A stretch of DNA of 64,000 nucleotides from Balanoglossus misakiensis (GCA_040954595.2 CM082583.2:466542-530541), one strand, 5' to 3'; positions 18,001 through 41,200 are shown, counted from the first letter of the stretch. Notes: generated from the letters alone by a model not told the origin. A program made the numbers and translations.

Positions 18001-18213
18001 GTGTTTCCGCTCTAAAGTGCCGGGGCTTCAGCTAAACCAGGCCGTAGGAAATCCGACGTAATCACCGTTGATAACTTACGCCAGTCTGTGTCATATAGAG
18101 CCGGTGCACCAGCCGAGTCACGCCGTAGGAAATCTGACTTGATCAACGTGGTCAATGTACGCCTGTTTCTGCTCTAGAGTGCCGGGGCTTCAGCTGAGCC
18201 AGGCCGTAGGAAA
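1..18213. repeat. Composite tandem macrosatellite, left block (~2.05-kb unit: array of 81-bp GC-rich monomers, AT-rich ~335-bp subrepeats, poly-C-containing linker)
   Basis: The marker ttctgt(t)cccccc recurs at ~1365, 3415, 5628, 8001, 9911, 11963, 14018, 16068 and 17623. The motif ccgtagga recurs every 81 bp (e.g. 1698, 1779, 1860). Near-identical short ORFs recur in the ORF track. Confidence 0.97.
8788..8974 (+). mobile_element. 5'-truncated L2-type LINE 3' end (187 bp) inserted in the satellite
   Basis: Flanked by a 6-bp TSD aacgct (8782-8787 and 8975-8980). Encodes FKRNLKTYLF, resembling the FK..LKT.LF C-terminus of L2 ORF2. Has a 3'UTR stem gcgct...agcgc and an (AAT)n tail. Absent from the other satellite units. 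Confidence 0.8.
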
Positions 18214-18239
18214 CACAGCACGAAATAGGCATTTTAAGT

Positions 18240-18465
18240 CATTTTATGCAATTGCATAATACTGCATAAAGTTGGTCTTCTTTTACAAGCCCCTTTATGC
18301 AACCGCTTAAAGAGGTGTGAAGTTGGTCAACAGTGTTTATCTTGCTATCTCCTTTAATTGGTTGCATAATTGTATAATGGCTTACCGATTATATGCACCT
18401 TTATGCAAAGTATAAAGATGGTTACATGACTCAACGAATATATACACATTTATGCACGTTATAAA
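18240..18465. repeat. Left subterminal repeat cluster of the CACTA element (TTATGCA/TGCATAA, both orientations)
   Basis: tttatgcaattgcataat, tgcataaag, tttatgcaac, ttgcataat, tttatgcaaag, tttatgcacg. Confidence 0.85.
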
Positions 18466-19759
18466 GACGGCCACAGTTTTCAGGAAGCGCCAGCCATCGG
18501 CAACCTGGTCGGCTACTTTGCGGTACTGGTGGCCTAGCTACTTTTTCTTATTAAAATACCACCCCCTCATTCGATCTTTGACAGTCATACAATTGAAACA
18601 ATAGCCTAATTTAACCGTTTTGCATTGCTATATGTCATCGACATTTGAAGTGCATGACAGAACGAATGTCATTGGGCCGACTAGGCCCCACTGGCTTTGA
18701 ACATCATGTCATGACTATGGTATATGTCATATATGTCAGACGATCGGTTATTAGCATATCAGTGTGGGATTGTGGCAGGTGGAGGCGCAGTACAGGTTGC
18801 GATAATGATCATTTGAGCCTTCTCTGTAGCGTTTGTAAAACGCCGTTGTTATAAAAATCACAAATAAATATCTCTTCATTACATTGACATGATTTTTATG
18901 CGAATAAACAACACATTGGCATATGATTTCAAAGTACGGTAGGCAACAAGGTACAGTCGCGTGTGCGGCGCTCCATATATCTCGGGACACTCGCGCAATG
19001 CCACTCAGCCTCCTAGATGAAAAAAATCCGACCACGCGGTGGTTGGAACCCCATTCATGGCGCTAAGCGCTGTAACATTTGTTAGAACAATATGATACAA
19101 TGTTTATATGCTTATTGACCTTATAATGCATACATGCGTCTAATAGTGGAAGTGACCTCATGAATGACATTGTTTTCAAGCTCATCCTTTCATGAATAAC
19201 GTGTGACCAACAGCGCAAAACTGGCCAATTACGGTTCCAACATGCGTCTATGGTTCCAACAACAGACAAAATAAAAACTAGAAAAGTATACAGAGATACA
19301 AAACCAGCAAATATTGCTTCTAGGGTGATTAAAGCCATGATTGACGCCCTGAAAGATGTGAAATGACTCAGTTGTGTTCACTATTCATCAAGAATTGAAA
19401 GGAAGCAGCAAGTTATGGTGAAAACAAAAGCGGACATAAGGCAAAAATACGGGAGTTGACAGTGACACGTTCGGCATAGCGGGCAGACATAAATGCGTCG
19501 GGGGAAAGCCGGGCCATTAGTGATAGCGTCGGGGGCCCCGACGCTGTTTGGGCCTGGGGAGAGCTGTATATTTACAAATCAGACAAGAGTAGTCATCAAA
19601 ACTCTTAGTATACTCAATACTTATAGTATGTTTTAGGAATGCACAATTACCCGTAATGCATTGGGTTTAAAATGTTTCTTCCAGCGAAGAGAGCGAGAAG
19701 GGACTTGAAAACGTATGCCCCTTGAATCTTCGGAACAATAATAAATAGAAAACATACAT

Positions 19760-20800
19760 GTGTAAAAGAAAGTTGTATCTAAAAACCGTCTAGTTTGCAT
19801 TAGTCACATGCACTTCTCTTCGTAATGTTTATTCCGTAAACGCATCTATCGCACGTTTTTAACACATTTCCCAGGTTTTAGACTCGGTTGGTCTAAATTG
19901 CCTGGAGGCGGTGAAGAAGGACCGTGTGTGTATCTTGTTGCAAGGTGCGGGCGTCCTTTGATCTGCACAGCACATAGGTTAATGGTAAAACTTAGCGTTT
20001 GTATAAACATTGATGTGCAAACACACGGAAAACGTTCCCACCACAGTTGCACCGATTAACATGTCAAACGCGTGTTTATGTTCTTGCCCTCCAGACAAAC
20101 ATTCGAGGTTTTGAACACCGACTCCCCTGTATGAGTCGAAATGATGTCTGCGGAGAACGAGCTTCTCAGAATTACACATGCACAACACACGCATGTCTAA
20201 AATGACGTCCAACTATTGTCTCACCAAGAACATCGGTTACATGTATCTTTATTTGTACGTATGCGATGCTGATCCCTGTAATCGTAATGTAAAGCCCGAT
20301 AAAATCAAGTGTGGACGCGCTGCACGCGCGTTGCCACTGCAGTGATTTTCAATGTACCTACATGTAAAAGGAAGGCTGATGATATAAATTATATCCCTAC
20401 TAGGCCTAGCACAGCCCATACGAAACAACAGCCTACGTTTCGGATGCGGCGCTCTTAATTTGTGTGGGCTGGCAATGAGCGCTGCACTGGATGCCTTCCA
20501 ACTACATAACCCCCCCCCCCCCAAACGTTCATGAACTATAGTAGTTCGAACAAATAAAAAGTATTGGCCTGTGGTGCGTGCCTGTGTTGCTGATCAGGAC
20601 AGCATCGATAGACCAGCAAAGAATGTCTTGAAACATGGCTATAACTCTGGCATAATAGGCCTACTGACCAATTGTAGAAACAAAATCCAATTGAAATTAA
20701 GCCCATCCCCGAATGTGTGAAAAGCGTGTTTTTCCGACGAGAATATCTCGAAATTTTTCGCGTAGAAGCGTTCTAAATCGTTATTTCTGAATACTGGGGC
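19760..20800 (-). pseudogene. Highly decayed piggyBac-like transposase relic
   Basis: Minus-strand fragments fall in piggyBac order: LREKFRDIL (~MSR.RF..IL), WSIDAVLI...GTH (~SIDE.MI...GRH), DIIYIISLPF...CSGNARAAR (~DNYFTSLPL...CGT.R.NR), W*DNS, RGVGVQNLE (~MGGVD.LD), KGRP, then a Cys-rich tail. Many stops and frameshifts. Confidence 0.5.
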
Positions 20801-21994
20801 CAGTATTTTGTCAGCGAAATCGCATTTCGTTCATTGCCGCTCCAACCAAAATTACAACAGATAGTACGCTCAATTATGCTCAGCCTGTTGAAATATTAAC
20901 ATTCGACGGAGCCGGTGGTCCAGTCAGCGATCACGTGAAACACAGCTATTATTAGAAAAAGAGACTCGACTCGTCGCGGTGATATATAGGCCTAAATCGG
21001 CAAATGGCGTGCCCATTTGCGTTTACTCAAATGAAACTGAGTATCTAGCGAACCCCGTCATATTAAAATATAATATTACGGAGAGCTGTTCTCTGTGTTC
21101 CAATTACTAGCATGGCTCTAGTGATTCCTGTTTCTCCCCTGCCCTGTTAACGGGGAATTCAGTCGCCAACACACCGTGCACACACAGCACGATGTAATCG
21201 ACTGGACGACGATCGTGCCAATAATCTGATGCTTCTTACAATCGAAGGATCAAGGTTGCAGACTTTCGTTTCAACCGAGCAAGGGAAACTTTCGCTTCGC
21301 GTGCAAATAGAAATCCTGTTAATTCTACTAAAAGTTCATTTCCAATGACTGTAGAGCGTTACAGTATTAGTTACAACACCTGAATTTCGTTGACTTGAAT
21401 TCGGAAATGGCCGTAATTACGCGTTCGAGACTAGTCTGTGTTTTCCTGCCTACATTCTCGAGCTCCGTTTCGACTTGAGCGTGATAGGTGATAGCCTATG
21501 ACCGCTCTGATCAGAATTACACTAATTGTGTTGATTAATATTATTAGGTTAAACAGGATATTCCTCCGAGTCCACGAACGCTTACGACACCAACTGATGC
21601 TATATGTATGTCTCTGCTCGCGGCAATGAAATACAAGGTCTTGTGCAACATAAAATTTAGTCGTATCGCCAATTATAAAATGTCACAATTAAAATGACGT
21701 CGAATTATATCAGTCATCAGCGCTGGCCATTTGAGTTTGGATTTTCATTGTTCGACAGAGAATGATAATTTGATTGTAGCGTAGAAATCGTTGCACCGAC
21801 CGCGGCACATACAGCATCAAAGGACGCATCGATTGCTGCGCGTTCTCTTAATCATGCACGCGAAATGTTAGAATTAAGTAAAAATGTAGCAGAACTTTTT
21901 CTCTTGACGCAACAGAAATCTTGCCGATTCAGGGAGTTATGATAAATCGTTTCGCACACTTAGTGAAAAACACGGGAAGGCCCCATAACCGCCG

Positions 21995-22995
21995 AACACT
22001 TATGTTTCGTTCTAGTGGTAAACTGACCGTGAACGTTGGTTGTATTACCGTCCTGGTGACGTTATGAACTGTAAATTCTGCCAGAAATTCAATAAACGAT
22101 CGTATAAAACAAGACGTCGTGCAAGTGACTGAGACAAGACACCATCAAAGTGCGCAGGCAGAGAGTGCAGCACATAAAGACGCGATGAAACGTGAACTGT
22201 AGGCCCTAGACCTTAACACGCAGAATATTGCCGAGTTTCATTGCCGAAGTAGTACAGACAGACACGATCTCACCGGCTTTCAGAGACTTTTATTTTTTAA
22301 TAGCCAACAAGCGAATAATTCCCCATACCACGAATTTTGAGCCAGTGAATTACCGGTACTGACGCAACTCGGTTTATCAATGAAAGACAGTTTCCCGGAG
22401 AACCGGAGTCTGGGGGCCGTAGTCGGTTCTCGGGAACCTGTGTGAACGAGTATTGCGGCGACAAGTCGATAAAAAATCTATGAATCCTGACATCGGTCCT
22501 CGAGAATAAATCGATTAAAGAAATGTAGACTTGAATTTGTACTCAATAAATAAGGCTGTCACGGTAGACGAAACTACTGATGTCAACATAAGCGAGCAGT
22601 TGACTCGAACTGTAGACATTTACATGTAGATGAGTCCGGTAATTTATTATCAGTGAATTCAAAGTTCTTGAAACTCAATGAACCACTGAAACGTACCCGA
22701 TACTGACAATGAACAGAGCGCGACACTTGGGGCGAAAACATAGCTCGGCATATGTTACGAAGTCTTTAGAAGAGAAAAAAATCAGATTTGGCCTAGTTGG
22801 TATCGGCACCGATGAGTTATGACAGGCAAGAAATCTATCGTGGTTCGGCGCTTAAAATATTCAGCGAAGTAATAAGTCCAAACCACTTCAACTGACATTA
22901 TTGCCCGCGATGTAGCTCCCACGAAGCGGCTTACTTCGATGTTGCGGCAGTTTTATGACTTCTACAGCGCTGTGCCGCACTACACGCAATTCAGA
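21995..22995 (+). pseudogene. Decayed hAT (ZNF862/ZMYM-like) transposase relic
   Basis: Fragments in hAT order: RWLYYRPGDVMNCKFCQK (TTF-type Zn finger, ~22034), ESAAHKDA, TVDETTDVNISEQL (first catalytic Asp motif, 22561-22602), LVGIGTD..MTGKK...RLK, LRQFYDFY. Frameshifted and internally deleted. Confidence 0.75.
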
Positions 22996-24613
22996 TAAAA
23001 CTGCGTGTCTGAGAAACTGCACGCCTCTCTATACTATTTCTCTTAGATCACTGCCTAAGTTTCCAAAGACGTGCGTTCGTCCCTGCGCGTTTTTCATCAT
23101 TTCAAATAATATACTCCAAACTGAAGCGACAAGTATGGTTTCTCTTCTTATTTCTGATCACATCAGTATAAAAGACCAGAAACATTGAATCTCAAACAGT
23201 TTTCATGTTTTCGTTTACGGCCTAACGGTAACCACCACCCCCACGACCGCTTCCGCGGACAGACTCTCCCACAACCCTTAGTATAGTTATAGGCGGCGAG
23301 AGGGGATGTGAGAGAGTCTGATACTTCCATGTAACTTGTATGTACACCCTCTCAAAATCTTGAAGGGGCACGGACTGGGGAGAGACTTACGTCTCACCCA
23401 GAAAGTGTTATTGAGTGAATGCGAATGTAATTGAAGAGCTGCCAGAGTCAAATTCTGACCTCTTGCTACCGGTGTTTGAACACGAAATTGTAACCCATGT
23501 TGCGCTGTACATCTGAATGTAAAAGCACCCTGCAGCATATAATTGACTGCCAAAATTTCTTTAATATCCAGTCGAGAAGTAGATGCTCTCCGAACCTAAC
23601 TCAGACTGTAGTCGAGCTAATGACATGTGCTAGCGAACAGTGCCGGCCGCACCGTCTTCTCAATTATGCCCTACATGACAGCAACTGGATTGCGAATCTA
23701 CTGACTGCACTACGCGCAATTTGTTCACACTGCACGGGCGAAATCGACAATTTCACTCATTTTATGCAATCATTATACACCCCTTGTTTGGCGCTATCGA
23801 TGTGTGTGATCAGTTCAATTTTAGTTCTGTAAATGCGATATTAGCTTAGTAGTGATACAACTGCCAACCACATCATAAAACGCGGTTTTAACCAGCATGT
23901 CTGACACGGCCTTCAATCTTTATGATTTTCCATTGTGTACTCAAGATTCCCACGCAGTGAATGACTTCCATTGATATGCTAATTAGAGTCTTTGCACAAA
24001 GACAATGAATCAGATCAGAGTGAAGGTCAAAGTTTGCTGCTTGTATTTGAATCTTGAAAACTCCTTGGAAAATCGCCTGAATTACGCTCGTTTTGTTTCC
24101 CTTTGCCGTTTAAACGTCCTCCCTATTAAAGATTGGTCGCAGTATTAAAATGACCCAATTTCGTTATGATATATGGCTCACAGCTACTGGTGGGGAAACC
24201 AGCAGAGCACCACCCCCATAGCTGCGTTACACAGCCAGGTCAAATAATGATAGATTATTGACACATTGTTGTTTTCCAATAAACTGTTCAGTCTGTGGGC
24301 AGAATCATTTTGTCCCCTGGGGCTGAGGCCTTTACCATGCATAGCAGAAAAAGCTTATGTCTGCTTTGTTTCATGAAACTGTATACATGTACTTCTTAAT
24401 TTGACCCTTAAGCAAAACACACACACACATACACACTAGTTTATGTGGGTAACAAAGTTACTGGAGACAAGTAATTCATTCATGAAAGTAATAAATTTAT
24501 TGCAGATATGAATATTCAAGTAAAATGTACAACTATGAAAAATATACAAGATGCATCATACTTAACACTGAAAATTACAGGGGAGCATGACATAGGTTTC
24601 TTTCTCTCTTATA

Positions 24614-27600
24614 TTAATATGCAACAACTCTGCGGTTGATTGCACTGACAACTTGGCTATTATCTTTCAAATCAGTACAGGCAAAGCGGCAAGAAATACG
24701 ATGTATTGGCAAAAAGCTACACTTCCCATATGGTTCAAATGTCTTCTGTTGCCAGACTTCAACACAATTACCAAATTTGTCCTTGTTTTCATGTGGCTTA
24801 TACCATCTTACCATTGCAAAGTTGTGTACAAGTCTCTTGCCATCTATCTCAACAGAGTGACTAAAATACCAATCAACCTGACAAGGTCGAAGATTACATG
24901 GAGAAATATCAAAGTCCCCAGTGTTACCTGCCCATTTAGCCATAACTCTTGCACTTCTTAACATTCTGCATGCCATTTTAGACCCAAATCTCTCTCCAAA
25001 GATATATACATATGCATATTTTTTTACAAGTTTACTAATACAGCTTGCAACTTTATTTGGATACATATACTCGTATACAGCTTTAATTAGGTTTGTATCC
25101 TCAACAGAAAGGGCTCCTTCAACATACGCATTTGGGACATATACAGATTCATTACATCCCCAGTTAATGTTTTCCATTAATTTTGCATCAGGAGCACTCA
25201 GAAGAAAGAAATTGCTCGCCTTGCATACATCTTGTTTTGATCCTGGTCTTTCAATCAGATTTGAGAATATCCCAGAAAGACCGTTCTTCATTTCTTTGTT
25301 TTGTACAAACCTCAGTACTGTAATTTTCCTCATAAACTGTATTTCTACTGACCTGTTATTAGTGGGAATATCCCCAAAATACCCATTATATCTCTCAAAA
25401 GGGAAGCACCAAAATGCACTAATGGGTCCATAGTCAAATAAACACTCTCTCAGATGACACACAAGGTGCATGTTTGGAGTAATCATTTTCTTACTATACA
25501 GCGTCTCACACTTAATGCAAAAGTTCAATAACAAGATGTCAGCTTTTCTGATATCAGCTTCACACAGGTATGGCTTGCATAATATTTTACAGGCTAAAAC
25601 AAACCGTTCCCAACATAATAAGTGATTCTCAGGAATAAGCCCATTCAAGCAGTACATGGAAAAAACAGTAATCCAATACTTCCATTCATCAGCAGAAAAT
25701 TTCCCGTAATTTGAAGCAATTTTATTGGGTATCCTACCAATGTCACATGCTACTGTCATGGACTGTATTCTATTTTGAAGAACACTAAGTTTTTTGGGTG
25801 ATAAGAACATATCTAGATATACCTTGAACATCTTTTTACCAATCCCAAGAAATAAGTTATGCATTGGATCAATTGAAATCATCTTAACACAATCAAAGTA
25901 TGGTAGCTCAACAAGAACAGAGTAATATGTCCCATACTTCTGAGAAAGCCTGTTAGATTCTTTGACAGTTTTACAATTATTTACATCATGGGCATATTTA
26001 TTATGCTTTGCCTTTGTTCTCTTTGGCCAGTTATCCCTGTCAAAGCCAGAGTAGTCCTTCTTTTCTCCAAAGCCACCAGGAAATACTTTATAACACTTTG
26101 AACAACCAACACTGGCTGCATGAGACTTGAAACCACCTATTTTTCTGGCAGCAGGTATATCTGACACAACAGAAAGTAGAGCTGCTCTTACTTTGACAGG
26201 GACACTTGATGAACTGGTTCCTAAATTCAAACCTTTCCAAAGTTTCTGTAATTCACTGACAAAAGGCTGGAGAAAAGAATTCAAACTGAATGGTTCTTTA
26301 TCAAGAGGAGGTAGGATTCCAGCAACTATAACGTTTTCAAACTTAAAGCGGATTACCCGTGGCATATTTAGTATCACAAAATATATCACACCAACAGAGT
26401 AATCATTTCTGTTTTTGAAGGGTTGAAACCAATCAACATTCATTGATAATGCTAAATTCCATTCTTTTGCTAGAAAATCTTCACCATCATAAGTTTGAAA
26501 TTCTTTCCATATGTTGCCATCATAAATATCTGTATATATTTTGTTACCTTCACAGTCTGTTTGTTCTGTATGTTTCTCTCTCCATTCTTCTAGTTTAGCA
26601 GGTATGTCTGCACGAAGCAAGATACTTTCTATTGAGTCAATAAGACTGACATATGAGAACACTTTCATTGGATAGAATCTAACAGTCCCATTTAAAATCA
26701 CATGCTTTGCAAGTGGCTGTCCACACTTTACTTGTTTCCCATTCTTAAATCTCTTCTTGTCACAACATCTGGCAAAGAATCTGCCATTCTGTCTAACAGC
26801 AAGGTTATCAATATCATGCAATGTAGCACATCTAGGATTTGGACAAACAGCTTTCTTAAGGAAATCATCCCTGTCAAGGTTCACACACTGACGAAGCATA
26901 TACAGAGATGCTGGTAAACACACAGCAAGTTCAGTTATATATTCATTATGCACAGTTACCCCAATGATGTTAAAAACAGTTGACAGAAACTGTAAAAGCC
27001 ATGACAAACAATTATCACTGACATGACAGCTGGCTTGCCAATACAACAGAAAATAAAGAATCCATGAAACCAACTCATTTACTTTAGCTATTTTGGACCT
27101 GTGTCTTTGAACCAATAAAGGTTGACCCAAATCTTGTAGAAATTCTTCTTCGTTTTCCTCTTCCCAAATTACCCCACCATCATCGTCTTCACTATCACTA
27201 GATGACATTGCAGCTTCCTGGACTTGACTTGCCCTACCACTTATACCATCTTCAGTATCGCTGAACGCTGACTCCTCTCCTGAGATGTCACTATCAGAGC
27301 CAGACCACTATGAAAAAGGGAAAGATATATAATAGATTTATTATTAATCACCAAGTTTACAATGTCATCATGGTTTGGCATAGACAACCAACCAGTCAGA
27401 TATTCTTACAAAGTCAAAGAGACATTTTTCAATGTGGCTTGATATACCAAATAAAATCTTGTAAGTTGCTCCAAATTGCCAGGTAAAATATGTCATTGTT
27501 AAACAATACTATTTTGCCTTATGGCATTCTCTTTGTAATACTGTAAAAACGGGAAATTTTCCGGCGATATCAAGAGACAACTGATATGTTCTCATAATTC

Positions 27601-28911
27601 ACTGCATGATTATCTCAGAAAAACATTTTACACGGCAGTTTGTTGTCGCGTTTATTTTGACTGTTGCGTAGTTTGCAAAAATGTATCATTCGTAAAAAAT
27701 TCCTGTTTTAAAGTATGTAATGTCTTGCTTGCCACCAAACCAGTAACAGTACCATAACACCAACTGTGTTGACAGTGTACATAGTCTAAATTCATGGGAT
27801 GGATTGAGTAATTACCTGCAAATCCCAGTTCGAGTCATCCTTATTCAACAACCCTCCGTCTTCAGTGACATTCTCACTTGATGCAGTGGATATATTAGGA
27901 GTACTGGCCTGTGCCTTCTTTATCAGATGACACCTAAAAGCTGATTCCAAAGGAGAGCCTGGTGACATCATAAAAGGTTCAGCATCTGGGATACCACATC
28001 CTGGAAAGAACAAACACGTACATGTTGTTGTTACACAACCCATTTCAGAAATGAAAAAAACATCACAAAATAACCAGAGCATGACACTAACAATATTTTT
28101 TTAAATAGTTGATAAGAAAACTAGATGCCAGCAAGAATTCTGCTTGGACTAGTTCAACTCCAACACACATATGGTCACACCGATAGATGCAAGCGAACTA
28201 TACACTTTACAGTGACCCCCCCCCCCCCCGAAGAGGGTGTACACTATATTTGCATGTTTTTGAAATCAAACTAAAACAAAAAAACTACACAGCAACATAT
28301 TCTACATCTACGCACCATGTGACAAAATGGTGCTGGCATACAATGTTAGGAGACCACTGGCAGAAAAAGTAGGCAACTGAAATTGGGCAATGTCAGAACT
28401 AAATAAATGTTGCAGTTAAATTACCATTATCATCAGAGCTTTCAGTATCCAGTGGGTTCTTTGTATGAATCATTGTAATTTTCCGTCTGGATTTTGATGA
28501 TTTTTTTTCATGTATATGTACCTCCCAGGAACAGGATTGATAATTGAAATATGTTCTTTTATGTCTCAAAAAGTTTCTTGTACTGAAGGTCTCATGACAC
28601 ACTGGACACACACGACCTCTCTTTGGTGTTTGAAAATCCTATAAATAAAAGAAAAGTTGTCATTAATTTTTCAAAACATTGTGCAAATTGGACTTAATAC
28701 CAATTTCTTTACAATCACAGCCATAAATTTTCAAACTTTGTAGAACCAAATTGATAACTGGACTTCTTGGAAAATCACTACCTACGCATGAAACCCTATT
28801 TTGCATCGCTTCTGGTTTTACAATGAAATCAAGCACTGTATAGCAACATTTATTATATGCTTTGAACTATATTGTGTAACAACGATACATATAAGCATTG
28901 AAACTTACCAT
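24614..28911 (-). CDS. EnSpm/CACTA transposase (Tnp2/Transposase_21-like), ~1031 aa; predicted join complement(28909..28911,28425..28638,27816..28000,24614..27307)
   Basis: The 864-aa ORF has DIYDG.IW, NVDWFQPF, SVGVIYFVILNMP, DIPAARK.GGF, CSKC, IDPMHNLFLG, TPNMHL.CHL and FWCFPFERYNG. Upstream exons join through GT-AG introns with consistent phases and add an N-terminal CPVC...H Zn-finger-like motif and an acidic region. Confidence 0.93.
27539..27715. mobile_element. TA-flanked MITE in a transposase intron
   Basis: TIR tactgtaaaaacgggaaatttt versus reverse complement of the right end tactttaaaacaggaatttttt. A related left end occurs at 31204. Confidence 0.6.
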
Positions 28912-29613
28912 TTCATGAATGTCTTGGGAATAAATCACTCAAGGGTGAATATGAGGCATTCAAAAGCAAACATAAAGCTACTGTCAAAATCCAAGTGCAG
29001 GTGACAGATACAGGAAACTGGTTTGCTGTAATATTGCAGTTGCTGTTGAAACAGAAGTAATAAAAACGTTAATGTTAAAAGTCATTGTACATTTAATTTC
29101 AGTATGCGACCAACTGGTATGATATTCAACTGAATTATCAAAACACAACTTCAGAAAATGTTAGACATGTTCTACTTATTGTTGCCAACTCTTTCTAATT
29201 ATCATGATCCTTATGTAAAATTTGAAGAGGAAAATTGCTTGGTTGACACATATTTGAGACCACAATATCCACGTGCTAGTATATATATTGCTTTCCTGTA
29301 AAGCTACATCAGCAAGTACAAGTAAAAGCAGCTGAGCATTCTGCCATTGCTACTCAACCATGCAGCATTGTCTCTCGTATGCACATAGTTTACACACCCT
29401 AACATGTTGATCATTCCAGAGTACATATACACTGTATCTACATTTAGACTCTATCTTTGGACATATATACTTACTAGCTGCCTTAAATTATATTATAATT
29501 AATCATGCGTGTCCTACAAGCCTCACACATGACCGAGGCTATCGAAATCATGCTTAGTTGGAACTCGAAACCCCGACTGATGCAACCGCAGTATATAGTA
29601 GAAAGGTTTGTAA

Positions 29614-29835
29614 GGGGTAGACCATTTGATTCTTGGGAGCTGGAGGAATTATTTCCCAAATGGTGACTGTTGAGCATTTAATTTTTTGGTATTGTTCAAC
29701 CAGGTTTTTCAAAGCTTTGTCGGAATCATACTTGTTTGTTTTTTACTTAGCCCGCACGAACATTTTTTTCCCGGCTAAAAAAAAAAAACTTTCGACAATT
29801 TTGTCTTCACCCTCTGAAATCAAGTGGTCCACCCC
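29614..29835. mobile_element. PIF/Harbinger-type (Tourist-like) MITE
   Basis: 18-bp TIR ggggtagaccatttgatt / aatcaagtggtccacccc (16/18 match). TAA on both flanks (29611-29613, 29836-29838). Confidence 0.75.
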
Positions 29836-30144
29836 TAACGAAGCGGAAAGGGCAGAATGCGATTGTTAAACATATGTTCGGATGGCGATTTTGCCACTTA
29901 CTATCAATAAATATTTACCGACAACCACCTAATCAAAGCTTTGCGATATCTAGTCTTTGATCCGTGGCTAGAACTTATCAAATTTAAAGCTAAAAGGTAA
30001 ACGGACAGGGGTTTAGTTTTGTTTTACATCGGCTACATCAGTCGCGGCTCCGCGTGCGTCTCACGCGATCGTACGCCTACTGCGCCCGGCCTGGGTCCAA
30101 AGATACTGATGCCCACTCCTCCAGACAAATATCAACAATTATAT

Positions 30145-30452
30145 TATACCAGTATATTGATGGTGTAAATCACGCTATTTGATTGGTCGAGACACGACAC
30201 GTGACCGTGATATATTAGCCATATACCACAGTCATATATCATAGTCAAAGAAAATGCCTTTTTAAAATGTTTTATGCAAAGTTTCAATATACTGGCATAA
30301 TATAATAGCAATAAAACACCCCCAGCCATGGTATATCACTCGATTTTGACCAGTTCAACTCCATATACGCACTCGCTATCGCTCGTGCGTATATGTCGTG
30401 AACTGGTCAAAATCTCGTGGTATACCATGGCTGGGGGTGTTTTATTGCTTAA
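30145..30452. mobile_element. Compound inverted-repeat non-autonomous element (two adjacent hairpins)
   Basis: ttataccagtatattga (~30145) is inverted at tcaatatactggcataa (~30284). It is followed by a ~145-bp near-perfect palindrome agcaataaaacacccccagccatggtata...tataccatggctgggggtgttttattgct. Confidence 0.7.
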
Positions 30453-30769
30453 TTTAACAAGGATACATACCTTGAGCCACGTTTGCGTTTCGATCATTGG
30501 ACTCAGGAGTGAGAAACCTCGAAGCACAGTCAGTGAAGCACAGTATGATGTTCGTAGCGTCTTTCAGAAGCGTCCTGTAGCGTCTGATCGACGCATGTTG
30601 ACATTAAAAACACCGGATGTTTATCAAGTTTATTGTACAGGCACGGAATCCTTGAGACACGTGATTGTGAATTTAACGTTGATTGGTTATTAGTTCGGGG
30701 ATATTCTTACAACCAATCAAAGTTGCTGCCTTTGACTTTTGCGGGAATTTTGAAAAGTCAACCTATCCT

Positions 30770-30790
30770 CAGCAGTATAAATACCATGTC
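30770..30790 (+). promoter_or_regulatory. Candidate TATA box of the second CACTA gene
   Basis: gtataaata ~55 bp upstream of ATG 30835, with CCAAT-like motifs (gattgg, ccaatc) further upstream. Confidence 0.4.
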
Positions 30791-30834
30791 GTTTATTACA
30801 ACAAACTCAGAAGTTCTTTGCATCGTCTTCAACT

Positions 30835-33800
30835 ATGAATGAAAATACGTTTTGTGGTTGCTCCGCGGCTCAACAAGTACCGGCAATGCAGATGTCCCTA
30901 AAGGTAATAGAAGAAAAACTCTCAGCGCTTCACGCAACATCAGCAGCCCGCAGAAAATCCAAGATACATGTTAGCAACATCGTGTCTGTGAGTATGATTC
31001 TTTCTTTTTAAATACAACTCTCGCACCATAGTTAATCGTCCGTTGTTTAACATTAATGCAATGGGACACACGGGCAACCTGAAGTTGTCCTACGGGGCCA
31101 TAAGCCGATCGGAGCAGACCTCGGTATTAGCATGGAGGTCTGTGGTTGTAGCTTTATGGTAGGTCTCAATGGAAGGTGATCAGTACGTGGTATAATAATA
31201 AAGTACTGTAAAACAGGTTATTTTCGTGACAGGAAATTTTTGGCTCTCGCGTATTTCGCGACCGATCACGAAGCGATCTTTTCGCGTGCCTGTGTGTGTA
31301 GGTCTTTACCGAGACACGCACCTGCTATTTCCAGCTACGGACCGGGGGACTGAAGCTTCGCAAGCACATAAAGCGTGAAGCTTGTTGGTACGCATAATTA
31401 AGCTTCCTGAGGTCGTCAAATAGGGGTAGCCTGACACGGCCGTCGCGTACATTTCTTTTTAACATCGCGTACATTTTGCGATTCGGTGTGGAAGGGCTCT
31501 TATGTTTGAAAGATTTTAGGAGAACTTATAAATTGAACACTGAAATACTCAGTCGTCACCTGATAAATGTCAGAGGTCAATACTAGTATCACAGTTTGAA
31601 TTTGCATATGTCATTAATGCTACACATTCCTGACAAAGCTACCAAACAATAGCATTACAATAGCATTGTTTAACAATCTGTGCATCAGTGTCTCTTGTTG
31701 TGACCATTGGTTATAATGGGGTACAAGCTTTAATTATATGGTGGTCACACAGGGAATAAATATGTGTGAATGAAATGCTTCAGATTTGAGACGCTTTTTT
31801 CAGGCCAGACCTGAGCTTGTGTAACTAAGGATTAACACCTCCAACCTATCTGTTTGGGGCCAGGTGTCAGGTGGACACATACAATGTCAGGTGTTTAATT
31901 TTACCCAGTGTGACACTTGGGCTACTTTTTCAGTATTTTTGTGGTTAATTTCTGAAATATGCATAACATTTTGACCTTTTTGTGCGGAACCACATGTTGC
32001 ATAAATGCTTGTTTTAGTAACCTTTACAATGCAAATTTTGATAGTGGCCAGTGCTGTGCAAAAGATACATTTCAAGAAATATGCACTTAGGCCTATCTAT
32101 GCCTAGCCTGGTCACCATACCCAGCGTGTTTTCGATGTGTGTGAGTCTATCTAAAACACACTGGGTATGGTGACCAGGCTAATCTATGCCATAAATGTTG
32201 ATTGATAGGGTGATTGAAGCAAACAAATGAACTGTCAGAATGTTTTAAATAAAAATGATTTAACAATTTTACTAACATAGTACTTTATATTTTCACCCCA
32301 GAGAACAGTCCGTGCAAAGTACAACTTACTGAGGCAGAGGGATGACTTTCCTGGTCTTAATGTCACTGAGAGGTATTTACATTTCTTCTCTATTTTTAAT
32401 GTTGTGAAGTACAGGTGGACCTTTTGTATAGGGATAAACTGTGTTTACGCCATCTTGAAAATTTGCAGTGCATTATGGGTCACTTGAGTTCCGGTTGAGG
32501 GGGAGTAGCGCCTACAACCTATCCATTTTTTCCTGCGGTTTGGTCAGATTTTCTTCAAGTAACTACTACTACTAACGTTACTTGAAGAAAATCTGACTAA
32601 ACCGCTGGAAAATTGGATAGGTTGTAGACGCTACTCCCCCTCAACCGGAACTCAATTGACCCATAATGCACTGCAAATTTTCAAGATGGCGTAAACACAG
32701 TTTATCCCTACATGTATGTTATTCAAGTTTTCAGTTGTAAAGGTCTTCATCAATTTAAAGATATACATTCCAAGTTGTAAGAATGAAATTTCTCACAGTC
32801 CAAAATTGCCTTCCCATTCAGCGTGAATTTGATAACTTATACGTGTAATGCCACTATTCTATTCACAACTACACAATGATATGTTAGTAATAAAATGTTC
32901 CTATTAAATTAAATTGATCATTTTTCCATCACAGAAGCCAGTGGATTATGTTTTTATCTTTGAATTGTGCTGATGACTTTGCATACCCCATACAATAGTT
33001 TTTTTGACACAAGAATTAAGTTTACTTATTTAAGATACAATAAATCTATATAATTATACCTGCATCCGTCAGGGGGCTGAAATGAGACAACACTATATAG
33101 TGATAGGACACTGAAACTTGGGTTTAGGGGCCACATTGATGTGGGTCATTGAAAAGAGAGGCCGCATCGACCAAGGCTGGAACATGTTGGGGCCAGAATT
33201 CTAGAAGCCACATACTTCATCTGTTTAGCCTAGGATAACTTGACAAAAAATAATTAAATGGTTCATGAAATTTCTCTCTTTTTTTATAGATTTGATGCTG
33301 TGGAGAACCAGCAATCATGTGAAATTTTGCTGCAGGAGTTAAGATGTGATGACATCAACACACTCGAGGCCAAAGGTAAATGGATTTTGATTATGATATA
33401 ACATTAAATATCTGATACTTTTAATTAATATTGCAAAATCACAACCCTTTGCGTTGGATCATGGAGGCACTCTTAGTACCGCCATGGTTGGATCAAAGGA
33501 AAGTCCTCTACTTACTTGAGCTGGACATATTTACTTATAATATGCTCACATTCCTTCTAAAGTTGAAGCTTTAAGGAGATGCTAACATGACACATACAAA
33601 AGTAAAAACAACTTAGGCTGCTTGCTAATTTTCTGTTAATTCCTATTACAGAAGCAATCAGAACATTTTTTCGGGGGCAAAAAAAAACAAACATCGGTTG
33701 AATAGCCAAGGAAAGACAGAGGCCCACAAACAAACATGCCGTCGACAGGGGCGTAAAAGAGAGGTGAGTAGCTTCAAGTTTATGTCTAATACTGTTGTAT

Positions 33801-34405
33801 GTACCAGTTAGGTGACTGCGAAAGTTCCATCTGTTAATGTAACAATTGGGTTCGTTGAGTAAAAAAGAATAATATTCTTGTCTTTTTTGTTAGAGATTTT
33901 TTATATATAAACAATTACAAATCCAATGATGGCAATAGGATCTTGTTAAATATGAGCTCTACGTTGATTTTTTATTGACAAATCCTATGTTGTTCATTTT
34001 CAGAAACTCAAACAACTTCAGTCCTCCCTGAAATCGGTTGACTGGCCTGAAGAGGACAAGGGGAAAATTAAACGCGTACTAACAGCTGAGTATATCTCCT
34101 CGGAAGAGAGCGATTTTGATGATGAGGGGAAGATCAAGCAATACATAAGACGTCCTCTGACCTGGCAAAGGAAAAAGTTGCGTAAAAGCAAAAAACAGTT
34201 AATGGACATTTATTTAAAATCTCTATCGGCAAAGCAGCGCCAGCTTCGCCTTCCCAGGTCAGATGGACCCCCCTCTTCCAGGGAGCGGCCTGACTACCCA
34301 GAGGATTGGGCAGTCAGGGTTGCGTCTGGGTTAAGTCAAGATGATTCTGCGTCTTCTTCTGGAACCACAGGTTCTCTGGAGGAGGGATGTACTAGTCCCC
34401 ACTGA
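30835..34405 (+). CDS. Second gene of the CACTA element, C14orf93/DUF4616-like, ~274 aa; predicted join(30835..30987,32302..32372,33290..33375,33652..33763,34004..34405) with a 1-nt frameshift in the A9 run at 33679-33687
   Basis: Five GT-AG exons that stay in phase apart from one missing A. The translation includes AIRTFF..K, basic CRRQGRKREKL, LTAEYISSEESD, RRPLTWQ and RSDGPPSSRERP...WAV. This resembles the MSDEED...RPP.FR...GPPS.R.P pattern I recall for C14orf93-like proteins. Confidence 0.7.
32104..32181. mobile_element. 78-bp TAG...CTA MITE with 9-bp TSD (AcademH-like)
   Basis: tagcctggtcaccatacccag...ctgggtatggtgaccaggcta, with atctatgcc duplicated on both sides. Confidence 0.8.
32429..32710. 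mobile_element. ~280-bp palindromic (foldback) MITE
   Basis: tagggataaactgtgtttacgccatcttgaaaatttgcagtgcattatggg... is mirrored over nearly the full length. A second copy lies at 57557-57837. Confidence 0.9.
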
Positions 34406-35039
34406 TTGATATTGTACTTCATTTTATAATGTGTTTATTTATTTTGTTTTTCTATTTTTAACTAAATATTTCTACTTGACTTTTCATTTTTAATGACATT
34501 TGAAATTACTTTAGAATTGTTTTTACTTGTGTTTGTGATTTTTATTTAATTTCGTATTTTAGTTCGTAAAGGTTATTCTTTCAGTTTTTTACTTTCTAGT
34601 TTAATAAATTTTTCATTATATTGTAAATAGTAGTACTTATAGTAATAAAAAATCATAGAATTCATGACAATGTCCCACTGCATGTATATATAGCTTGTGT
34701 ATGTGTGATCTATTTGACGGTGGTGGAGTGTACTGGTACGTGTGCAGGAATGAAAAGATTGGCTGAAGACAAAGCTGGCCACAGAAAAGAACTATCACTA
34801 ACATATATTCTACCCTTTAGTTATACATGAAACAATAAGTGTACTGGACAAAGGAGGTATAAGTCTTTCATTGTTAATGACACTTATTCCCCCAACATTC
34901 GTAAACTCACTGTGGATAAAGTGAATATTCCAAAAGGAGAAATGAGAATCAGAAGCCAAAGCAAATATTCTGATCATTCTGACATAAAGCTGTATAAACG
35001 TGACGCTAGGTGTATAGAAATTCATCCTTTTATTCACCT

Positions 35040-35250
35040 TTATTAGAATGCATAAATGTGATGCAAGGTGTACATGAATTATTCACCCTTATGAGAGTGC
35101 ATAAAGGTGATTATTTGTGGTAAGCCATTATACCAATTTATAGAGTTGCATAAAGATGTATAAATGAATATCTTTATGCTGCATAAAGATGATTGCAAGA
35201 ACAGCTTTAATCATATTTATACCAACTTTAAGCATTGCATAAACCTGGGC
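35040..35250. repeat. Right subterminal repeat cluster of the CACTA element (TGCATAAA)
   Basis: atgcataaat, gtgcataaag, ttgcataaag, tttatgctgcataaag, ttgcataaac. Confidence 0.85.
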
Positions 35251-35262
35251 TTTCATCCTGTG

Positions 35263-38200
35263 AAACCCGACGTGATTACAGTTGTTAACTTACGCCAGTC
35301 TGTGTCCTATATATAGTGCCGGGGCATCAGCCGTGCCAGGCCGAAGGAAATGTGAGTAGATCAACGTGGTCTCTGTACGCGTGTTTCTGCTCTAGAGTGT
35401 CAGGGCTTTAGCAAAGCCATGCCGTAGGAAATCTGACTTGATCAACGTTGCTAGCGAACGCTAGTGTCTGTCATAGTGTGCCGGGGTTTTAGTCGAGCCA
35501 AGCCGTAGGAGATCAGACTTGATCAACGTGGTCTCTGTACGCGTGTTTCTGCTCTTGACTGCCGGGGCTTTATCCAAGCCATGCCGTAGAAAATCTGACT
35601 TGATCACCGTTGCTAACGTACGCTAGTGTCTGTCATATTGTGACGGAGATTTAGCCGAGCCAGGCCGTAAAAAATCGACTTGTTCAACGTTACCAGTGTG
35701 CAACTGTTTCTGCTCTAGAGTGTCAGGGTTTTAGCCCATTTATGCTGTAGGAAATCAGAGTTGATGAACGGGAATTCAATGTTAGAAAACCCGTGTGGAA
35801 AGTATCTCTACTCGTTTGAAACTAAGAAAAGAATTTATTCTTATTTATTTTGTAAAAAAGACAATGTTTCGAAACAAAGGCGAAAATGGTAATTTTGTCT
35901 TGGGTGATTCAAATTATACCACCTTTTCTGGAATTTGCAGCACTTTTTACAAGAGAACGACACTTCATGCTCCATAATATTTCCGAAAATGAAGAAAAGA
36001 GTTAATTTTTTATGATTTTTTAAAATTTTACCATTTTTGTCAAAATATGGCCAAAATGGCTATTTTTTCTTGAATTCCGTCAATATCTCTGCATTTTTGG
36101 AGTGGTCGAAACTTTTAACATACAATCAACATGTCATATATGATCGGGGCACCAAATTCGAAGAACAAAGGTTTTTTTATTTTTTTTTCTAAAAATGACA
36201 TTTTCAAGGAAAATTTGGTAAAACGCAATTTTGTCTGCAGTGAGCCAAATTAGACGGTCTTTTGTGGAATTTGTATCGATATATACATACGAAGAGCATT
36301 CTATACTCCATCAGATTTCCGAAAATGTAGAAAAGGGTATTTTTTGTAATTTTGAAAAATTTTCCATTTTGACCAAATTGTGGCTAAAATTGTTATTTAA
36401 GTGTTGAATGCCGCCAGTGTCACTGCTTTTAAAAGTCATAAAAACTTTTAACATACAAGCCATTCTTTATATATGATCAGGTCACCGAATTAAAAAAATA
36501 AAGAATGTTTTGCCTAAAAATGACCTTTTAGGTGCAAAAACGAATAAAACGTAATTTTGTATTAAATCAGTTCATTCAGAGTGCATTTTTTATAATCAGC
36601 ACCATTTTTACATATAATGGAAATTTCATACATCATCAGATATCCAAATATGAAAAAATGATTTAGATTTTAGATGATTGTCCAAAATTAGCTGATATCT
36701 AATAAATGTAGTATTGAACCGTTCTGTTTCCCCCCCCCCCCCCCCTATATTATATGCGGTACGCCGATGTCAGCTTACCCGGCAGTACTGCAGGCCGTGC
36801 CCCCAACTAACGTCGGTGTTTGTAACGCCCTGGTTAAATTCGGGCTTTCTCTATAAATTGACAGGCAATAATGCAGTCCTACCCGAACAAATGTCGAGTG
36901 TTGACCCGCTGTGACTTTCCCTCTTCGGTTTGCCCGACTTAGCCAACGTCTTTGTACTAGAGTGTCGGGTCTTTTGCAGAGCCAGGCCGAAGGAAATCCG
37001 ACTTGATCACCGTTGCTAACGAACGCTAGTGTCTGTCATAGTGTGCCGGGGTTTTAGTCGAGCCAAGCCGTAGGAGATCAGACTTCATCAACGTGGTCTC
37101 TGTACGCGTGTTTCTGCTCTAGAGTGCCGGGGCTTTATCCAAGCCATGCCGTAGAAAATCTGACTTGATCACCGTTGCTAACGTACGCTAGTGTCTGTCA
37201 TATTGTGACGGAGATTTAGCCGAGCCAGGCCGTAGAAAAATCGACTTGTTCAACGTTACCAGCAACTGTTTCTGCTCTAGAGTGTCAGGGTTTTAGCTGA
37301 CTTATGCTGTAGGAAATCTGAGTTGATGAACGGGAATTCAATGTTAGAAAACCCGTGTGGAAAGTATCTCTTCCCGTTTGAAACTAAGAAAAGAATTTAT
37401 TCTTATTTATTTTGTTAAAAAGACAATTTTTCGAAAAAAAGTCGAAAATGGTAATTTTGTCTTGGGTGATTCAAATTATACCACCTTTTCTGGAATTTGC
37501 AGCACTTTTTACAAGAGAACGACACTTCATGCTCCATAATATTTCCGAAAATGAAGAAAATAGTTAATGTTTTATGATTTTTTAAAAATTTACCATTTTT
37601 GTCAAAATATGGCCAAAATGGCTATTTTTTCTTGAATTCCGTCAATATCTCTGCATTTTTTGAGTGGTCGAAAGTTTTAACATACAATCAACATGTCATA
37701 TATGATCAGGGCACCACATTTGAAGAACAAAGGTTTTTTTATTTTTTTTTCTAAAAATGACATTTTAAAGGAAAATTTGGTAAAACGCAATTTTGTCTGC
37801 AGTGAGCCAAATTAGACGGTCTTTTGTGGAATTTGTATCGATATATACATACGAAGAGCATTCTATACTCCATCAGATTTCCAAAAATGTAGAAAACAGG
37901 TATTTTTTGTAATTTTCAAAAATTTACTATTTTGACCAAATTGTGGCTAAAATTGTTATTTTCGTGTTGAATGCCGCCAGTGTCACTGCTTTTAAAAGTC
38001 ATAAAAACTTTTAACATACAAGCAATTGTTTATATATGATCAGGTCACCGAATTAAAAAAATAAAGAATGTTTTGCCTAAAAATGACCTTTTTGGTGCAA
38101 AAACGAATAAAACGCAATTTTGTATTAAATCAGCTCATTCAGAGTGCATTTTTATAATCAGCACCATTTTTACATATAATGGAAATTTCATACATCATCA

Positions 38201-41200
38201 GATATCCAAATATGAAAAGATGATTTAGATTTTAGATGATTGTCCAAAATTAGCTGATATCTGATAAATGTAGTATTGAACCGTTCTGTTTCTCCCCCCC
38301 CCCCTACATTATATGCGGTACGCCGATGTCACCTTACCCGGCAGTACTGCAGGCCGTGCCCCCAACTAACGTCGGTGTTTGAAGCGCCCTGGTTAAATTC
38401 GGGCTTTCTCTATAAATTGACAGGCAATAATGTAGTCCTACCGGAACAAATGTCGAGTGTTGACCCGCTGTGACTTTCCCTCTTCGGTTTGCCCGACTTA
38501 GCCAACGTCTTTGTACTAGAGTGTCGGGTGTTTTTCAGAGCCAGGCCGAAGGAAATCCGACTTGATCACCGTTGCTAACGAACGCTAGTGTCTGTCATGG
38601 TGTGCCGGGGTTTTATTCGAGCCAGGCCGTAGGAGATCTGACTTGATCATCGTGGTCAATGTACGCGTGTTTCCGCTCTAAAGGGCCGGGGCTTCAGCTA
38701 AACCAGGCCGTAGGAAATCCGACGTAATCACCGTTGATAACTTACGCCAGTCTGTGTCATATAGAGCCGGTGCACCAGCCGAGTCACGCCGTAGGAAATC
38801 TTACTTGATCAACGTGGTCAATGTACGCCTGTTTCTGCTCTAGAGTGCCGGGGCTTCAGCTGAGCCAGGCCGTGGGAAACCCGACGTGATTACCGTTGTT
38901 AACTTACGCCAGTTTGTGTCCTATATATAGTGCCGGGGCATCAGCCGTGCCAGGCCGAAGGAAATGTGAGTAGATCAACGTGGTCTCTGTACGCGTGTTT
39001 CTGCTATAGAGTGCCAGGGCTTTAGCCAAGCCATGCCGTAGGAAATCTGACTTGATCAACGTTGCTAACGAACGCTAATGTCTGTCATAGTGTGCCGGGG
39101 TTTTAGTCGAGCCAAGCCGTAGGAGATCAGACTTGATCAACGTGGTCTCTGTACGCGTGTTTCTGCTCTAGAGTGCCGGGGCTTTATCCAAGCCATGCCG
39201 TAGAAAATCTGACTTGATCACCGTTGCTAACGTACGCTAGTGTCTGTCATATTGTGACGGAGATTTAGCCGAGCCAGGCCGTAGAAAAATCGACTTGTTC
39301 AACGTTACCAGTGTGCAACTGTTTCTGCTCTAAAGTCTCAGGGTTTTAGCCGACTTATGCTGTAGGAAATATGAGTTGATGAACGGGAATTCAATGTTAG
39401 AAAACCCGTGTGGAAAGTATCTCTACCCGTTTGAAACTAAGAAAAGAATTTATTCTTATTTATTTTGTAAAAAAGACAATTTTTCGAAAAAAAGTCGAAA
39501 AATTGCAATTTTGTCTTGGGTGATTCAAATTATACCGCCTTTTCTGGAATTTGCAGCACTTTTTACAAGAGAACGACACTTCATGCTCCATAATATTTCC
39601 GAAAATGAAGAAAAGAGTTAATTTTTTATGATTTTTCAAAAATTTACCATTTTTGTCAAAATATGGCCAAAATGGCTATTTTTCTTGAATTCCGTCAATA
39701 TCTCTGCATTTTTGGAGTGGTCGAGAGTTTTAACATACAATCAACATGTCATATATGATCAGGGCACTAAATTCGAAGAACAAAGGTTTTTTTATTTTTT
39801 TTTCTAAAAATGACATTTTCAAGGAAAATTTGGTAAAACGCAATTTTGTCTGCAGTGAGCCAAATTAGACGGTCTTTTGTGGAATTTGTATCGATATATA
39901 CATACGAAGAGCATTCTATACTCCATCAGATTTCCGAAAATGTAGAAAACAGGTATTTTTTGTAATTTTCAAAAATTTACCATTTTGACCAAATTGTGGC
40001 TAAAATTGTTATTTTCGTGTTGAATGCCGCCAGTGTCACTGCTTTTAAAAGTCATAAAAACTTTTAACATACAAGCAATTGTTTATATATGATCAGGTCA
40101 CCGAATTAAAAAAATAAAGAATGTTTTGACTAAAAATGACCTTTTTGGTGCAAAAACGAATAAAACGCAATTTTGTATTAAATCAGCTCATTCAGAGTGC
40201 ATTTTTATAATCAGCACCATTTTTACATATAATGGAAATTTCATACATCATCAGATATCCAAATATGAAAAGATGATTTACATTTTAGATGATTGTCAAA
40301 AATTAGCTGATATCTGATAAATGTAGTATTGAACCGTTCTGTTCCCCCCCCCCCCCCCCCTACATTATATGCGGTACGCTGATGTCAGCTTACCCGGCAG
40401 TACTGCAGGCCGTGCCCCAACTAACGTCGGTGTTTGAAACGCCCTGGTTAAATTCGGGCTTTCTCTATAAATTGACAGGCAATAATGCAGTCCTACCGGA
40501 ACAAATGTCGAGTGTTGACCCGCTGTGACTTTCCCTGTTCGGTTTGCCCGACTTAGCCAACGTCTTTGTACTAGAGTGTCGGGTCTTTTGCAGAGCCAGG
40601 CCGAAGGAAATCCGACTTGATCACCGTTGCTAACGAACGCTAGTGTCTGTCATGGTGTGCCGGGGTTTTAGTCGAGCCAGGCCGTAGGAGATCTGACTTG
40701 ATCATCGTGGTCAATGTACGCGAGTTTCCGCTCTAAAGTGCCGGGGCTTCAGCTAAACCAGGCCGTAGGAAATCCGACGTAATCACCGTTGATAACTTAC
40801 GCCAGTCTGTGTCATATAGAGCCGGTGCACCAGCCGAGTCACGCCGAAGGAAATCTGACTTGATCAACGTGGTCAATGTACGCCTGTTTCTGCTCTAGAG
40901 CGCCGGGGCTTCAGCTGAGCCAGGCCGTAGGAAACCCGACGTGATTACCGTTGTTAACTTACGCCAGTCTGTGTCCTATATATAGTGCCGGGGCATCAGC
41001 CGTGCCAGGCCGAAGGAAATGTGAGTAGATCAACGTGGTCTCTGTACGCGTGTTTCTGCTCTAGTGCCGGGGCTTTATCCAAGCCATGCCGAACAAAATC
41101 TGACTTGATCACCGTTGCTAACGTACGATAGTGTCTGTCATATTGTGACGGAGATTTAGCCGAGCCAGGCCGTAGAAAAATCGACTTGTTCAACGTTACC

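Follow-up and report, generated by a model that had tools for sequence, protein, structure and literature searches.

Plant En/Spm transposons, such as maize Spm and Arabidopsis Spm1 and Spm3, pair a Transposase_21 enzyme (TnpD) with a second protein (TnpA) and have CAC-type ends, 3-bp target-site duplications and clustered subterminal motifs; in some Arabidopsis families the two proteins are encoded by separate genes (cited portions of PMC13547354 and of bioRxiv 10.64898/2026.08.24.746577, sections 4, 6 and 21). In plants TnpA binds the clustered terminal motifs and activates its own element (section 4 of the bioRxiv article), and it has been modelled as a dimer that binds transposase (PMC13547354, in the part cited). 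Here we describe an element of this kind in a 64,000-nucleotide stretch of Balanoglossus misakiensis DNA (GCA_040954595.2 CM082583.2:466542-530541), which we refer to as the window. It carries a second, accessory gene head-to-head with its transposase gene, and we are nearly certain that this gene is the standing second gene of one animal EnSpm/CACTA lineage. It is possibly also the source of a human gene, C14orf93.

Animal EnSpm/TRC elements, which include SmTRC1 of Schistosoma, ENS1_Cis and the animal EnSpm families in Repbase, encode a transposase of the same family. A TnpA-like role has been proposed for SmTRC-PrA (PMC1636069, in the part cited); SmTRC1 differs, however, in its CCC ends, 2-bp duplications, spliced isoforms and lack of a conserved accessory protein, whereas the second gene of the window element is separate and conserved across phyla. 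The unnamed 'accessory proteins' among the 962 Repbase Spm proteins of the bioRxiv survey may cover the accessory family. The layout also departs from that of plants, where the two proteins are spliced from one unit or encoded head-to-tail rather than head-to-head. There is precedent for a host retaining the non-catalytic partner of a two-gene DNA transposon, one case being NAIF1, which derives from Harbinger. Another is RAG2, from Transib (PMC5753468, in the part cited). Both come from superfamilies other than EnSpm, and the cited part of PMC5753468 names no EnSpm-derived human gene and makes no mention of C14orf93.

The element and its boundaries comprise the following features.

18214..35262, unstranded: EnSpm/CACTA element of autonomous type, 17,049 bp, delimited by CACAG...CTGTG ends and reconstruction of the empty site
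18211..18213, + strand: left target-site duplication AAA, from the empty-site reconstruction
35263..35265, + strand: right target-site duplication AAA, from the empty-site reconstruction
18244..18456, unstranded: left subterminal cluster, seven TGCATAA in both orientations
35049..35242, + strand: right subterminal cluster, five TGCATAA in a single orientation

Unique sequence runs from CACAG (18214) to CTGTG (35262) inside a satellite. Removal of the element with one AAA rejoins 237 bp of satellite sequence, which two other units match at 100% identity and nine more at 98-99.6%; because this excision restores continuous satellite, the duplication is 3 bp long and the insertion clean. The sequence-only reading of the window had placed a five-exon gene wholly between terminal inverted repeats. 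Five GT-AG exons do lie between the two ends, but their inverted repeats are only 5-12 bp in length (a perfect match over 5 bp, and 10 matches among the first 12 bp), which rules out long terminal inverted repeats. The terminal 300 bp on the left and right contain seven and five copies of TGCATAA, against seven in the 16.4-kb middle and four in the other 47 kb of the window, and none of 300 shuffles matched the terminal clustering. By the membership criteria in the cited part of PMC12730594, the interval is an EnSpm/CACTA (CMC) element: it has 5'-CAC..GTG-3' termini at 18214 and 35262, a target-site duplication (AAA) of the 2-3 bp class, and repeated subterminal motifs at both ends. Its left arm (window 18460-24600, about 6 kb) contains no long open reading frame (ORF) and no recognisable gene, and 19921-24472 is barely covered by one of two public DNA runs.

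The accessory gene consists of five exons.

30835-30987, + strand: exon 1, coiled-coil-like start
32302-32372, + strand: exon 2, helix 1 of a three-helix bundle
33290-33375, + strand: exon 3, helix 2 of the bundle
33652-33763, + strand: exon 4, helix 3 and basic helix, with an A9-run frameshift in the window copy
34004-34405, + strand: exon 5, conserved C-terminal domain with SSEES, W and PSSR..P motifs, the DUF4616-like part

Its introns are GT-AG, in phases 0, 2, 1 and 0. Joined exons 1-4 match P0139, a Potamilus protein and the best long relative, at E 9e-12; since the set of relatives had been chosen with exon 5 only, this match confirms the splice model independently. The motifs YISSEESD, RRPLTW and GPPSSRERP are all in exon 5, and a basic helix extends across exons 4-5 (14 K/R versus 2 D/E in 46 aa), just as the sequence-only reading had described. 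In the window copy the spliced coding sequence is 824 nt long and loses frame in the A9 tract (33679-33687). One sample is represented by two public DNA runs, whose contigs span exons 3-4 and have 2 nt fewer in this tract; the frameshift of the window copy therefore stems either from recent slippage or from a mistake in the assembly. The public-run allele has an open frame of 273 aa and replaces the 274-aa repaired protein previously suggested, which we have dropped. Eight exonic substitutions between the two alleles are listed, four silent and four residue-changing, too few for inferring selection. Among the public-run matches listed, we found no RNA run with the accessory gene. Palindromic inserts resembling miniature inverted-repeat transposable elements lie in introns of the transposase and accessory genes (30307-30449, 32104-32181 and 32429-32710), and the latter two have copies at 43557-43603 and 57551-57843.

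The transposase gene lies on the opposite strand, across a short gap.

30497-30471, 28638-28425, 28000-27816 and 27307-24614, - strand: transposase gene, four exons (gene span 24614..30497), 1,039 aa, open
30498..30834, unstranded: gap between the divergent start codons, 338 bp between the two ATGs, containing a TATA-like box and a pair of CCAAT boxes

The transposase matches Pfam Transposase_21 (PF02992) at E 5e-15, with 55.6 bits against a cut-off of 28.6, and between aa 432 and 784 it has the D..D..E, C(2)C and H(3-4)H motifs of an EnSpm/CACTA enzyme. From its sequence, the gap is a candidate bidirectional promoter. A prediction of the complex between the transposase and the accessory exon-5 domain, run without alignments, yielded no verdict (score 0.00).

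The same pair of genes recurs in other elements. A search of metagenome contigs with the accessory gene returned 14 loci, and the three of these with 10 kb upstream (L008, L010 and L012) all carry a divergent Transposase_21 gene. They are copies of one family, 94-98% identical, with different left flanks and a common exact CACAG breakpoint; their contigs cover left ends only, not right ends, and their transposase is 33% identical to that of the window. A search from the other side, with transposase patterns alone, returned four loci, only one of which (L017) had more than 1.5 kb upstream. At this locus lies an entire element of 6,748 bp, bounded by CACTA/CACTG inverted repeats of 25 bp and a TTG duplication; it encodes an intact 347-aa accessory homologue head-to-head with the transposase (hidden Markov model E 1.8e-32). 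In all three families the accessory gene has four introns, in phases 0, 2, 1 and 0 and at aligned positions, at a protein identity of 27-36% (33-41% for the transposases), and the last intron sits before the same residue in several short loci too. A 21-row tree, with a midpoint root and long branches, places element-borne members on either side of the deepest supported split. The common layout and introns in three diverged families indicate that the accessory gene has been a long-time companion of the EnSpm lineage, and they rule out the one-off capture of a host gene. The proposed linkage of homologues to EnSpm transposases and CAC-type ends thus holds in three families, in which the gene, in the manner of TnpA, lies next to the transposase gene inside the element and is inherited along with it.

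The subterminal motif varies by family: it is TGCATAA in the window family and GGAAAC in the two others, which are mutually closer, although in L017 the GGAAAC enrichment is weaker and was reached by 7 of 300 shuffles. This difference fits co-divergence, without telling which protein reads the motif.

Several observations on these loci stand beside the linkage count. We excluded from it a two-exon piece at L018:6371-6898, which shows the expected intron phases but reaches a score of just 4 bits; a coiled-coil exon and a 62-nt exon (phases 0 and 2) lie there head-to-tail downstream of a transposase, the contig ends at this point, and the piece may be a member of the accessory family arranged in tandem. 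At L009 there is what appears to be a last exon of the accessory gene on its own. In the second EnSpm family, more than 4 kb of roughly 27-bp tandem repeats lie on the accessory-gene side (L008:12893-17193 and L010:12755-18208), and in the L008 accessory gene two stop codons interrupt the beginning of exon 5. The 22 kb of L017 that were fetched are eukaryotic-type DNA, with spliced genes and the complete EnSpm, and also hold what we take, from its motifs, to be a hAT-like transposase; the bacterial label of this contig (a Nitrospirales metagenome-assembled genome, MAG; 2.77 Mb) is probably a binning error. The EnSpm transposases of L015, L016 and L018 are likewise in MAG records.

A search of 1.84 billion representatives with exon 5 retrieved 173 relatives at E<=0.001; the best 150 of the 173 were listed and 147 sequences aligned. 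Among 20 that were looked up, those with a name are uncharacterised proteins from Geodia, Actinia, Clytia, Paramuricea, Potamilus, Owenia, Lingula, Ptychodera and Apostichopus; the relatives represent seven invertebrate phyla (sponge, cnidarians, mollusc, annelid, brachiopod, hemichordate and echinoderm). Several of these invertebrate species hold two or more divergent copies. A word-based protein search with exon 5 against longer proteins gave 0 matches, and two further searches of this type returned only the query's own members (A3) or one sponge protein (A7). There was no match to the accessory family among PDB sequences, no locus in viral contigs and no accessory-gene locus in prokaryote genome contigs. 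Two family sequences run without introns (L001:590-1678 and L013:109-738) and may be transcripts, retrocopies or cases of intron loss. The 580-aa Potamilus relative P0139, whose central part is a long low-complexity region, might represent an independent domestication in molluscs.

The sequence-only reading had proposed a likeness to vertebrate C14orf93, also called RTFC or 4931414P19Rik, whose domain is DUF4616 (PF15394). Exon 5 itself gave no Pfam match, and the likeness has been recovered through relatives. One of these, P0133 (phmmer E 9e-5 to exon 5), matches DUF4616 positions 410-476 at E 3.9e-5, and the match covers, over 75 residues, the ordered series of motifs named in exon 5. In the ESM Atlas, exon 5 fell among fungal and cnidarian clusters, some assigned to DUF8263 (25%) or DUF4616 (12%). 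The full-length Lingula relative P0120 fell beside a Mucoromycota DUF4616 cluster (score 0.94) and an all-chordate (133/133) cluster of 541-aa proteins (99% DUF4616, score 0.93, 199 of 256 features), where scores of at least 0.9 are also reached by 4-10% of shuffled proteins. A structure search with P0120 gave TM (template modelling) scores of 0.52/0.58 to a fungal DUF4616 cluster, with PF15394 named on the aligned part. A further relative, P0104, carries PF26792, the fungal domain DUF8263. Remote homology to the conserved C-terminal region of DUF4616 is thus seen through P0133 and P0120 only, and from these comparisons we consider it very probable that the accessory gene and C14orf93 are homologous. 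The two remain distinct in several respects: C14orf93 is about 540 aa long rather than 273 aa, is predicted to have a signal peptide and reported to act as a secreted protein, and is a conserved, non-mobile host gene, whereas the window gene lies below Pfam membership.

The distribution of these sequences bears on the direction of descent. DUF4616-type clusters occur in both fungi and animals, and the family is therefore old. Its invertebrate members are divergent, multi-copy and element-borne wherever long context exists, and the all-chordate cluster, the sole Atlas cluster listed that resembles a conserved orthologue set, looks like one conserved gene. This pattern favours domestication, and descent of C14orf93 from transposon to host is likely. 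In the cited portions of the literature, human and mouse C14orf93 are 87% identical (PMC3161784), the mouse protein is a nuclear protein of 541 aa with two predicted nuclear localisation signals (PMC10163356), and overexpression of C14orf93 reduces its own transcript (PMC5322522). A nuclear location and a self-lowered transcript are compatible with a former transposon regulator, a fit that falls short of proof. In the literature covered, with Repbase and the bioRxiv Spm supplements outside its scope, we came across no report that connects transposons with C14orf93, DUF4616 or DUF8263.

AlphaFold models of two relatives (predicted local distance difference test, pLDDT, 84 and 91) give a predicted order of coiled coil, three-helix bundle (exons 2-4), long basic helix and compact alpha/beta C-terminal domain. 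The first VIA structure search was dominated by the coiled coil. Foldseek found nothing at E<=0.001 in the PDB or among viral models. The C-terminal domain, searched within the larger model, had no match among the structural neighbours listed, and is predicted to be novel, with no solved look-alike. The protein also appears to differ from plant TnpA. TnpA/Ptta-type Pfam families were absent from the matches listed for the window exons and for the relatives (one list covering 25 of 59 families), and TnpA-like proteins are described, in the sources cited, as restricted to flowering plants. TnpA carries two tri-helical motifs in tandem, with a spacing of about 45 aa; the accessory models show one bundle, a long helix and an alpha/beta domain.

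We suggest that the accessory protein would nonetheless take a TnpA-like role, as an analogue built from different parts. Both head-to-head genes would fire from the shared promoter. The accessory protein would oligomerise through its coiled coil where the subterminal motifs cluster (TGCATAA in the window family and GGAAAC in the two others), the helix-turn-helix-like bundle and basic helix would grip these clusters, and the assembly would assist synapsis by delivering the ends, only 5 bp long, to the transposase. It would also, or instead, control element transcription at the shared promoter. One copy, freed of its element in a chordate ancestor, would have been kept as C14orf93. On balance we favour, with some reserve, the overall reading in which the accessory gene is a conserved EnSpm second gene, its protein likely a DNA-binding helper, and vertebrate C14orf93 likely a distant relative tamed from such a gene; for binding to the element's own terminal motifs in particular, the scales tip only slightly in favour. 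A broader proposal is tentative, and we would give it somewhat less than an even chance: DUF4616/DUF8263 would be an old animal-and-fungal family of EnSpm helpers that read their own subterminal motifs, a TnpA analogue of separate origin. Mammalian C14orf93/RTFC would be a domesticated member and a rare EnSpm-derived human gene, and its C-terminal half, still nuclear and DNA-binding, could explain the self-repression and the thyroid phenotypes.

A number of observations weigh against the helper reading and its extension to C14orf93. The TnpA binding domain consists of two tandem tri-helical motifs, and in animals this module is usually fused to the transposase (section 6 of the bioRxiv article, as cited), whereas the accessory protein shows one three-helix bundle. 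The best fold matches of this bundle are weak and tied at Z 5.5-6.0 (PNPase helical domain, GlnRS, TnsB and the P-element C-terminal domain). That to TnsB residues 97-174 has Z 5.8 and a root-mean-square deviation of 4.3 over 75 aligned residues, further neighbours at Z<=6.0 are winged-helix proteins, histone H5 and PHR2, and these structural matches reveal no function. The transposase, in addition, has a CxxC..H zinc-finger-like N-terminal exon, common to all four transposases checked, that could itself read the motifs. The linkage count amounts to three independent families, 11 of the 14 gene-side loci being contigs of 1.0-4.4 kb in which no transposase was seen and most of which are too short for one. 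An annotated relative, P0036 of Paramuricea, is fused to an unrelated N-terminus (these roughly 150 residues resemble, as an impression only, the tail of another transposase). As regards C14orf93, exon 5 had no Pfam match at E<=1, and the P0133 match to DUF4616 was the only one among 147 aligned sequences and, at 23.3 bits, lies below the gathering cut-off of 27. Exon 5, rather than the joined protein, was scanned, and under the Pfam rule the accessory gene is not to be filed as DUF4616. The protein searches returned no vertebrate C14orf93 sequence, so the comparison runs via relatives only, and mouse C14orf93 has also been reported as a secreted chemoattractant (PMC10163356, in the part cited).

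The main rival takes the transposase zinc finger as the motif reader. The accessory protein would then be a required subunit that binds DNA or RNA without sequence preference, or one that binds a host chromatin or silencing factor (anti-silencing, target choice). Conservation of the CxxC..H exon speaks for this, as do the RNA-binding helical domains among the best structural neighbours of the bundle, the RNA and phosphopeptide binding suggested for human C14orf93 by a screen cited in PMC5322522 (in the part available), and the fact that the most conserved accessory part is the acidic SSEES domain rather than the helix bundle. A coiled coil, helical bundle and very basic helix, together with 5-bp ends and motif clusters, nevertheless form the arrangement that plant TnpA serves (cited parts of bioRxiv 10.64898/2026.08.24.746577, section 4, and PMC13547354), and we regard the subunit-only alternative as unlikely, at roughly one chance in four. 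It is distinctly improbable that C14orf93 was instead an old host gene, captured and kept by an early EnSpm, with the vertebrate gene a cousin rather than a domesticate. Transposons are known to have co-opted host sequences in the case of plant TnpA domains and VANC (PMC13547354, in the part cited), and the age of the DUF4616-type family would suit it, but the invertebrate members are divergent and multi-copy, every long-context member lies within an element, and the only orthologue-like cluster among those listed by the Atlas is confined to chordates. We give very little credence to a superficial resemblance, in which an acidic serine motif and basic helices alone would liken an unrelated EnSpm second gene to C14orf93. 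The single sub-threshold profile match and the high Atlas scores of some shuffled proteins are what such a coincidence would predict; against it, the Pfam match spans an ordered motif series, both Atlas queries gave DUF4616 clusters, and the structure search named PF15394 on the aligned part.

The helper reading has consequences for a gene that has been tied to familial thyroid cancer and cortical development, and for which InterPro and HHpred gave no clue to function (cited parts of PMC10163356 and PMC5322522). If the transposon-helper ancestry is true, the C-terminal half of C14orf93 is predicted to be a nucleic-acid-binding module, and the missing second component of one animal EnSpm lineage would have been named. 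Animal CACTA transposition might be reconstituted from either of two apparently intact two-gene elements: that of the window, in its open allele, and L017, a compact one of 6.7 kb. Since two-gene CACTA elements and domesticated helper genes were already known, what is new here is the family link rather than the mechanism. What the sequence-only reading observed is confirmed and its interpretation partly supported, and the path from two-gene EnSpm elements to a human gene is credible but unproven.

The remainder of the window is largely repetitive. The host satellite of the element (1-18213 and 35263-41743) has a higher-order unit of about 2 kb built from 81/162-bp subunits, and a second array (45794-54054), 99% homogeneous, is built from 274- and 452-bp units; an Rfam scan of the window satellites gave no match. 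From its motifs, we take 54000-57276 (- strand) to be a probable, partly duplicated Penelope-like reverse transcriptase (RT)/GIY-YIG region. On the same footing, 59082-62895 (- strand) is presumably a long interspersed nuclear element, apparently intact, with a 993-aa endonuclease-RT ORF and a short ORF1.

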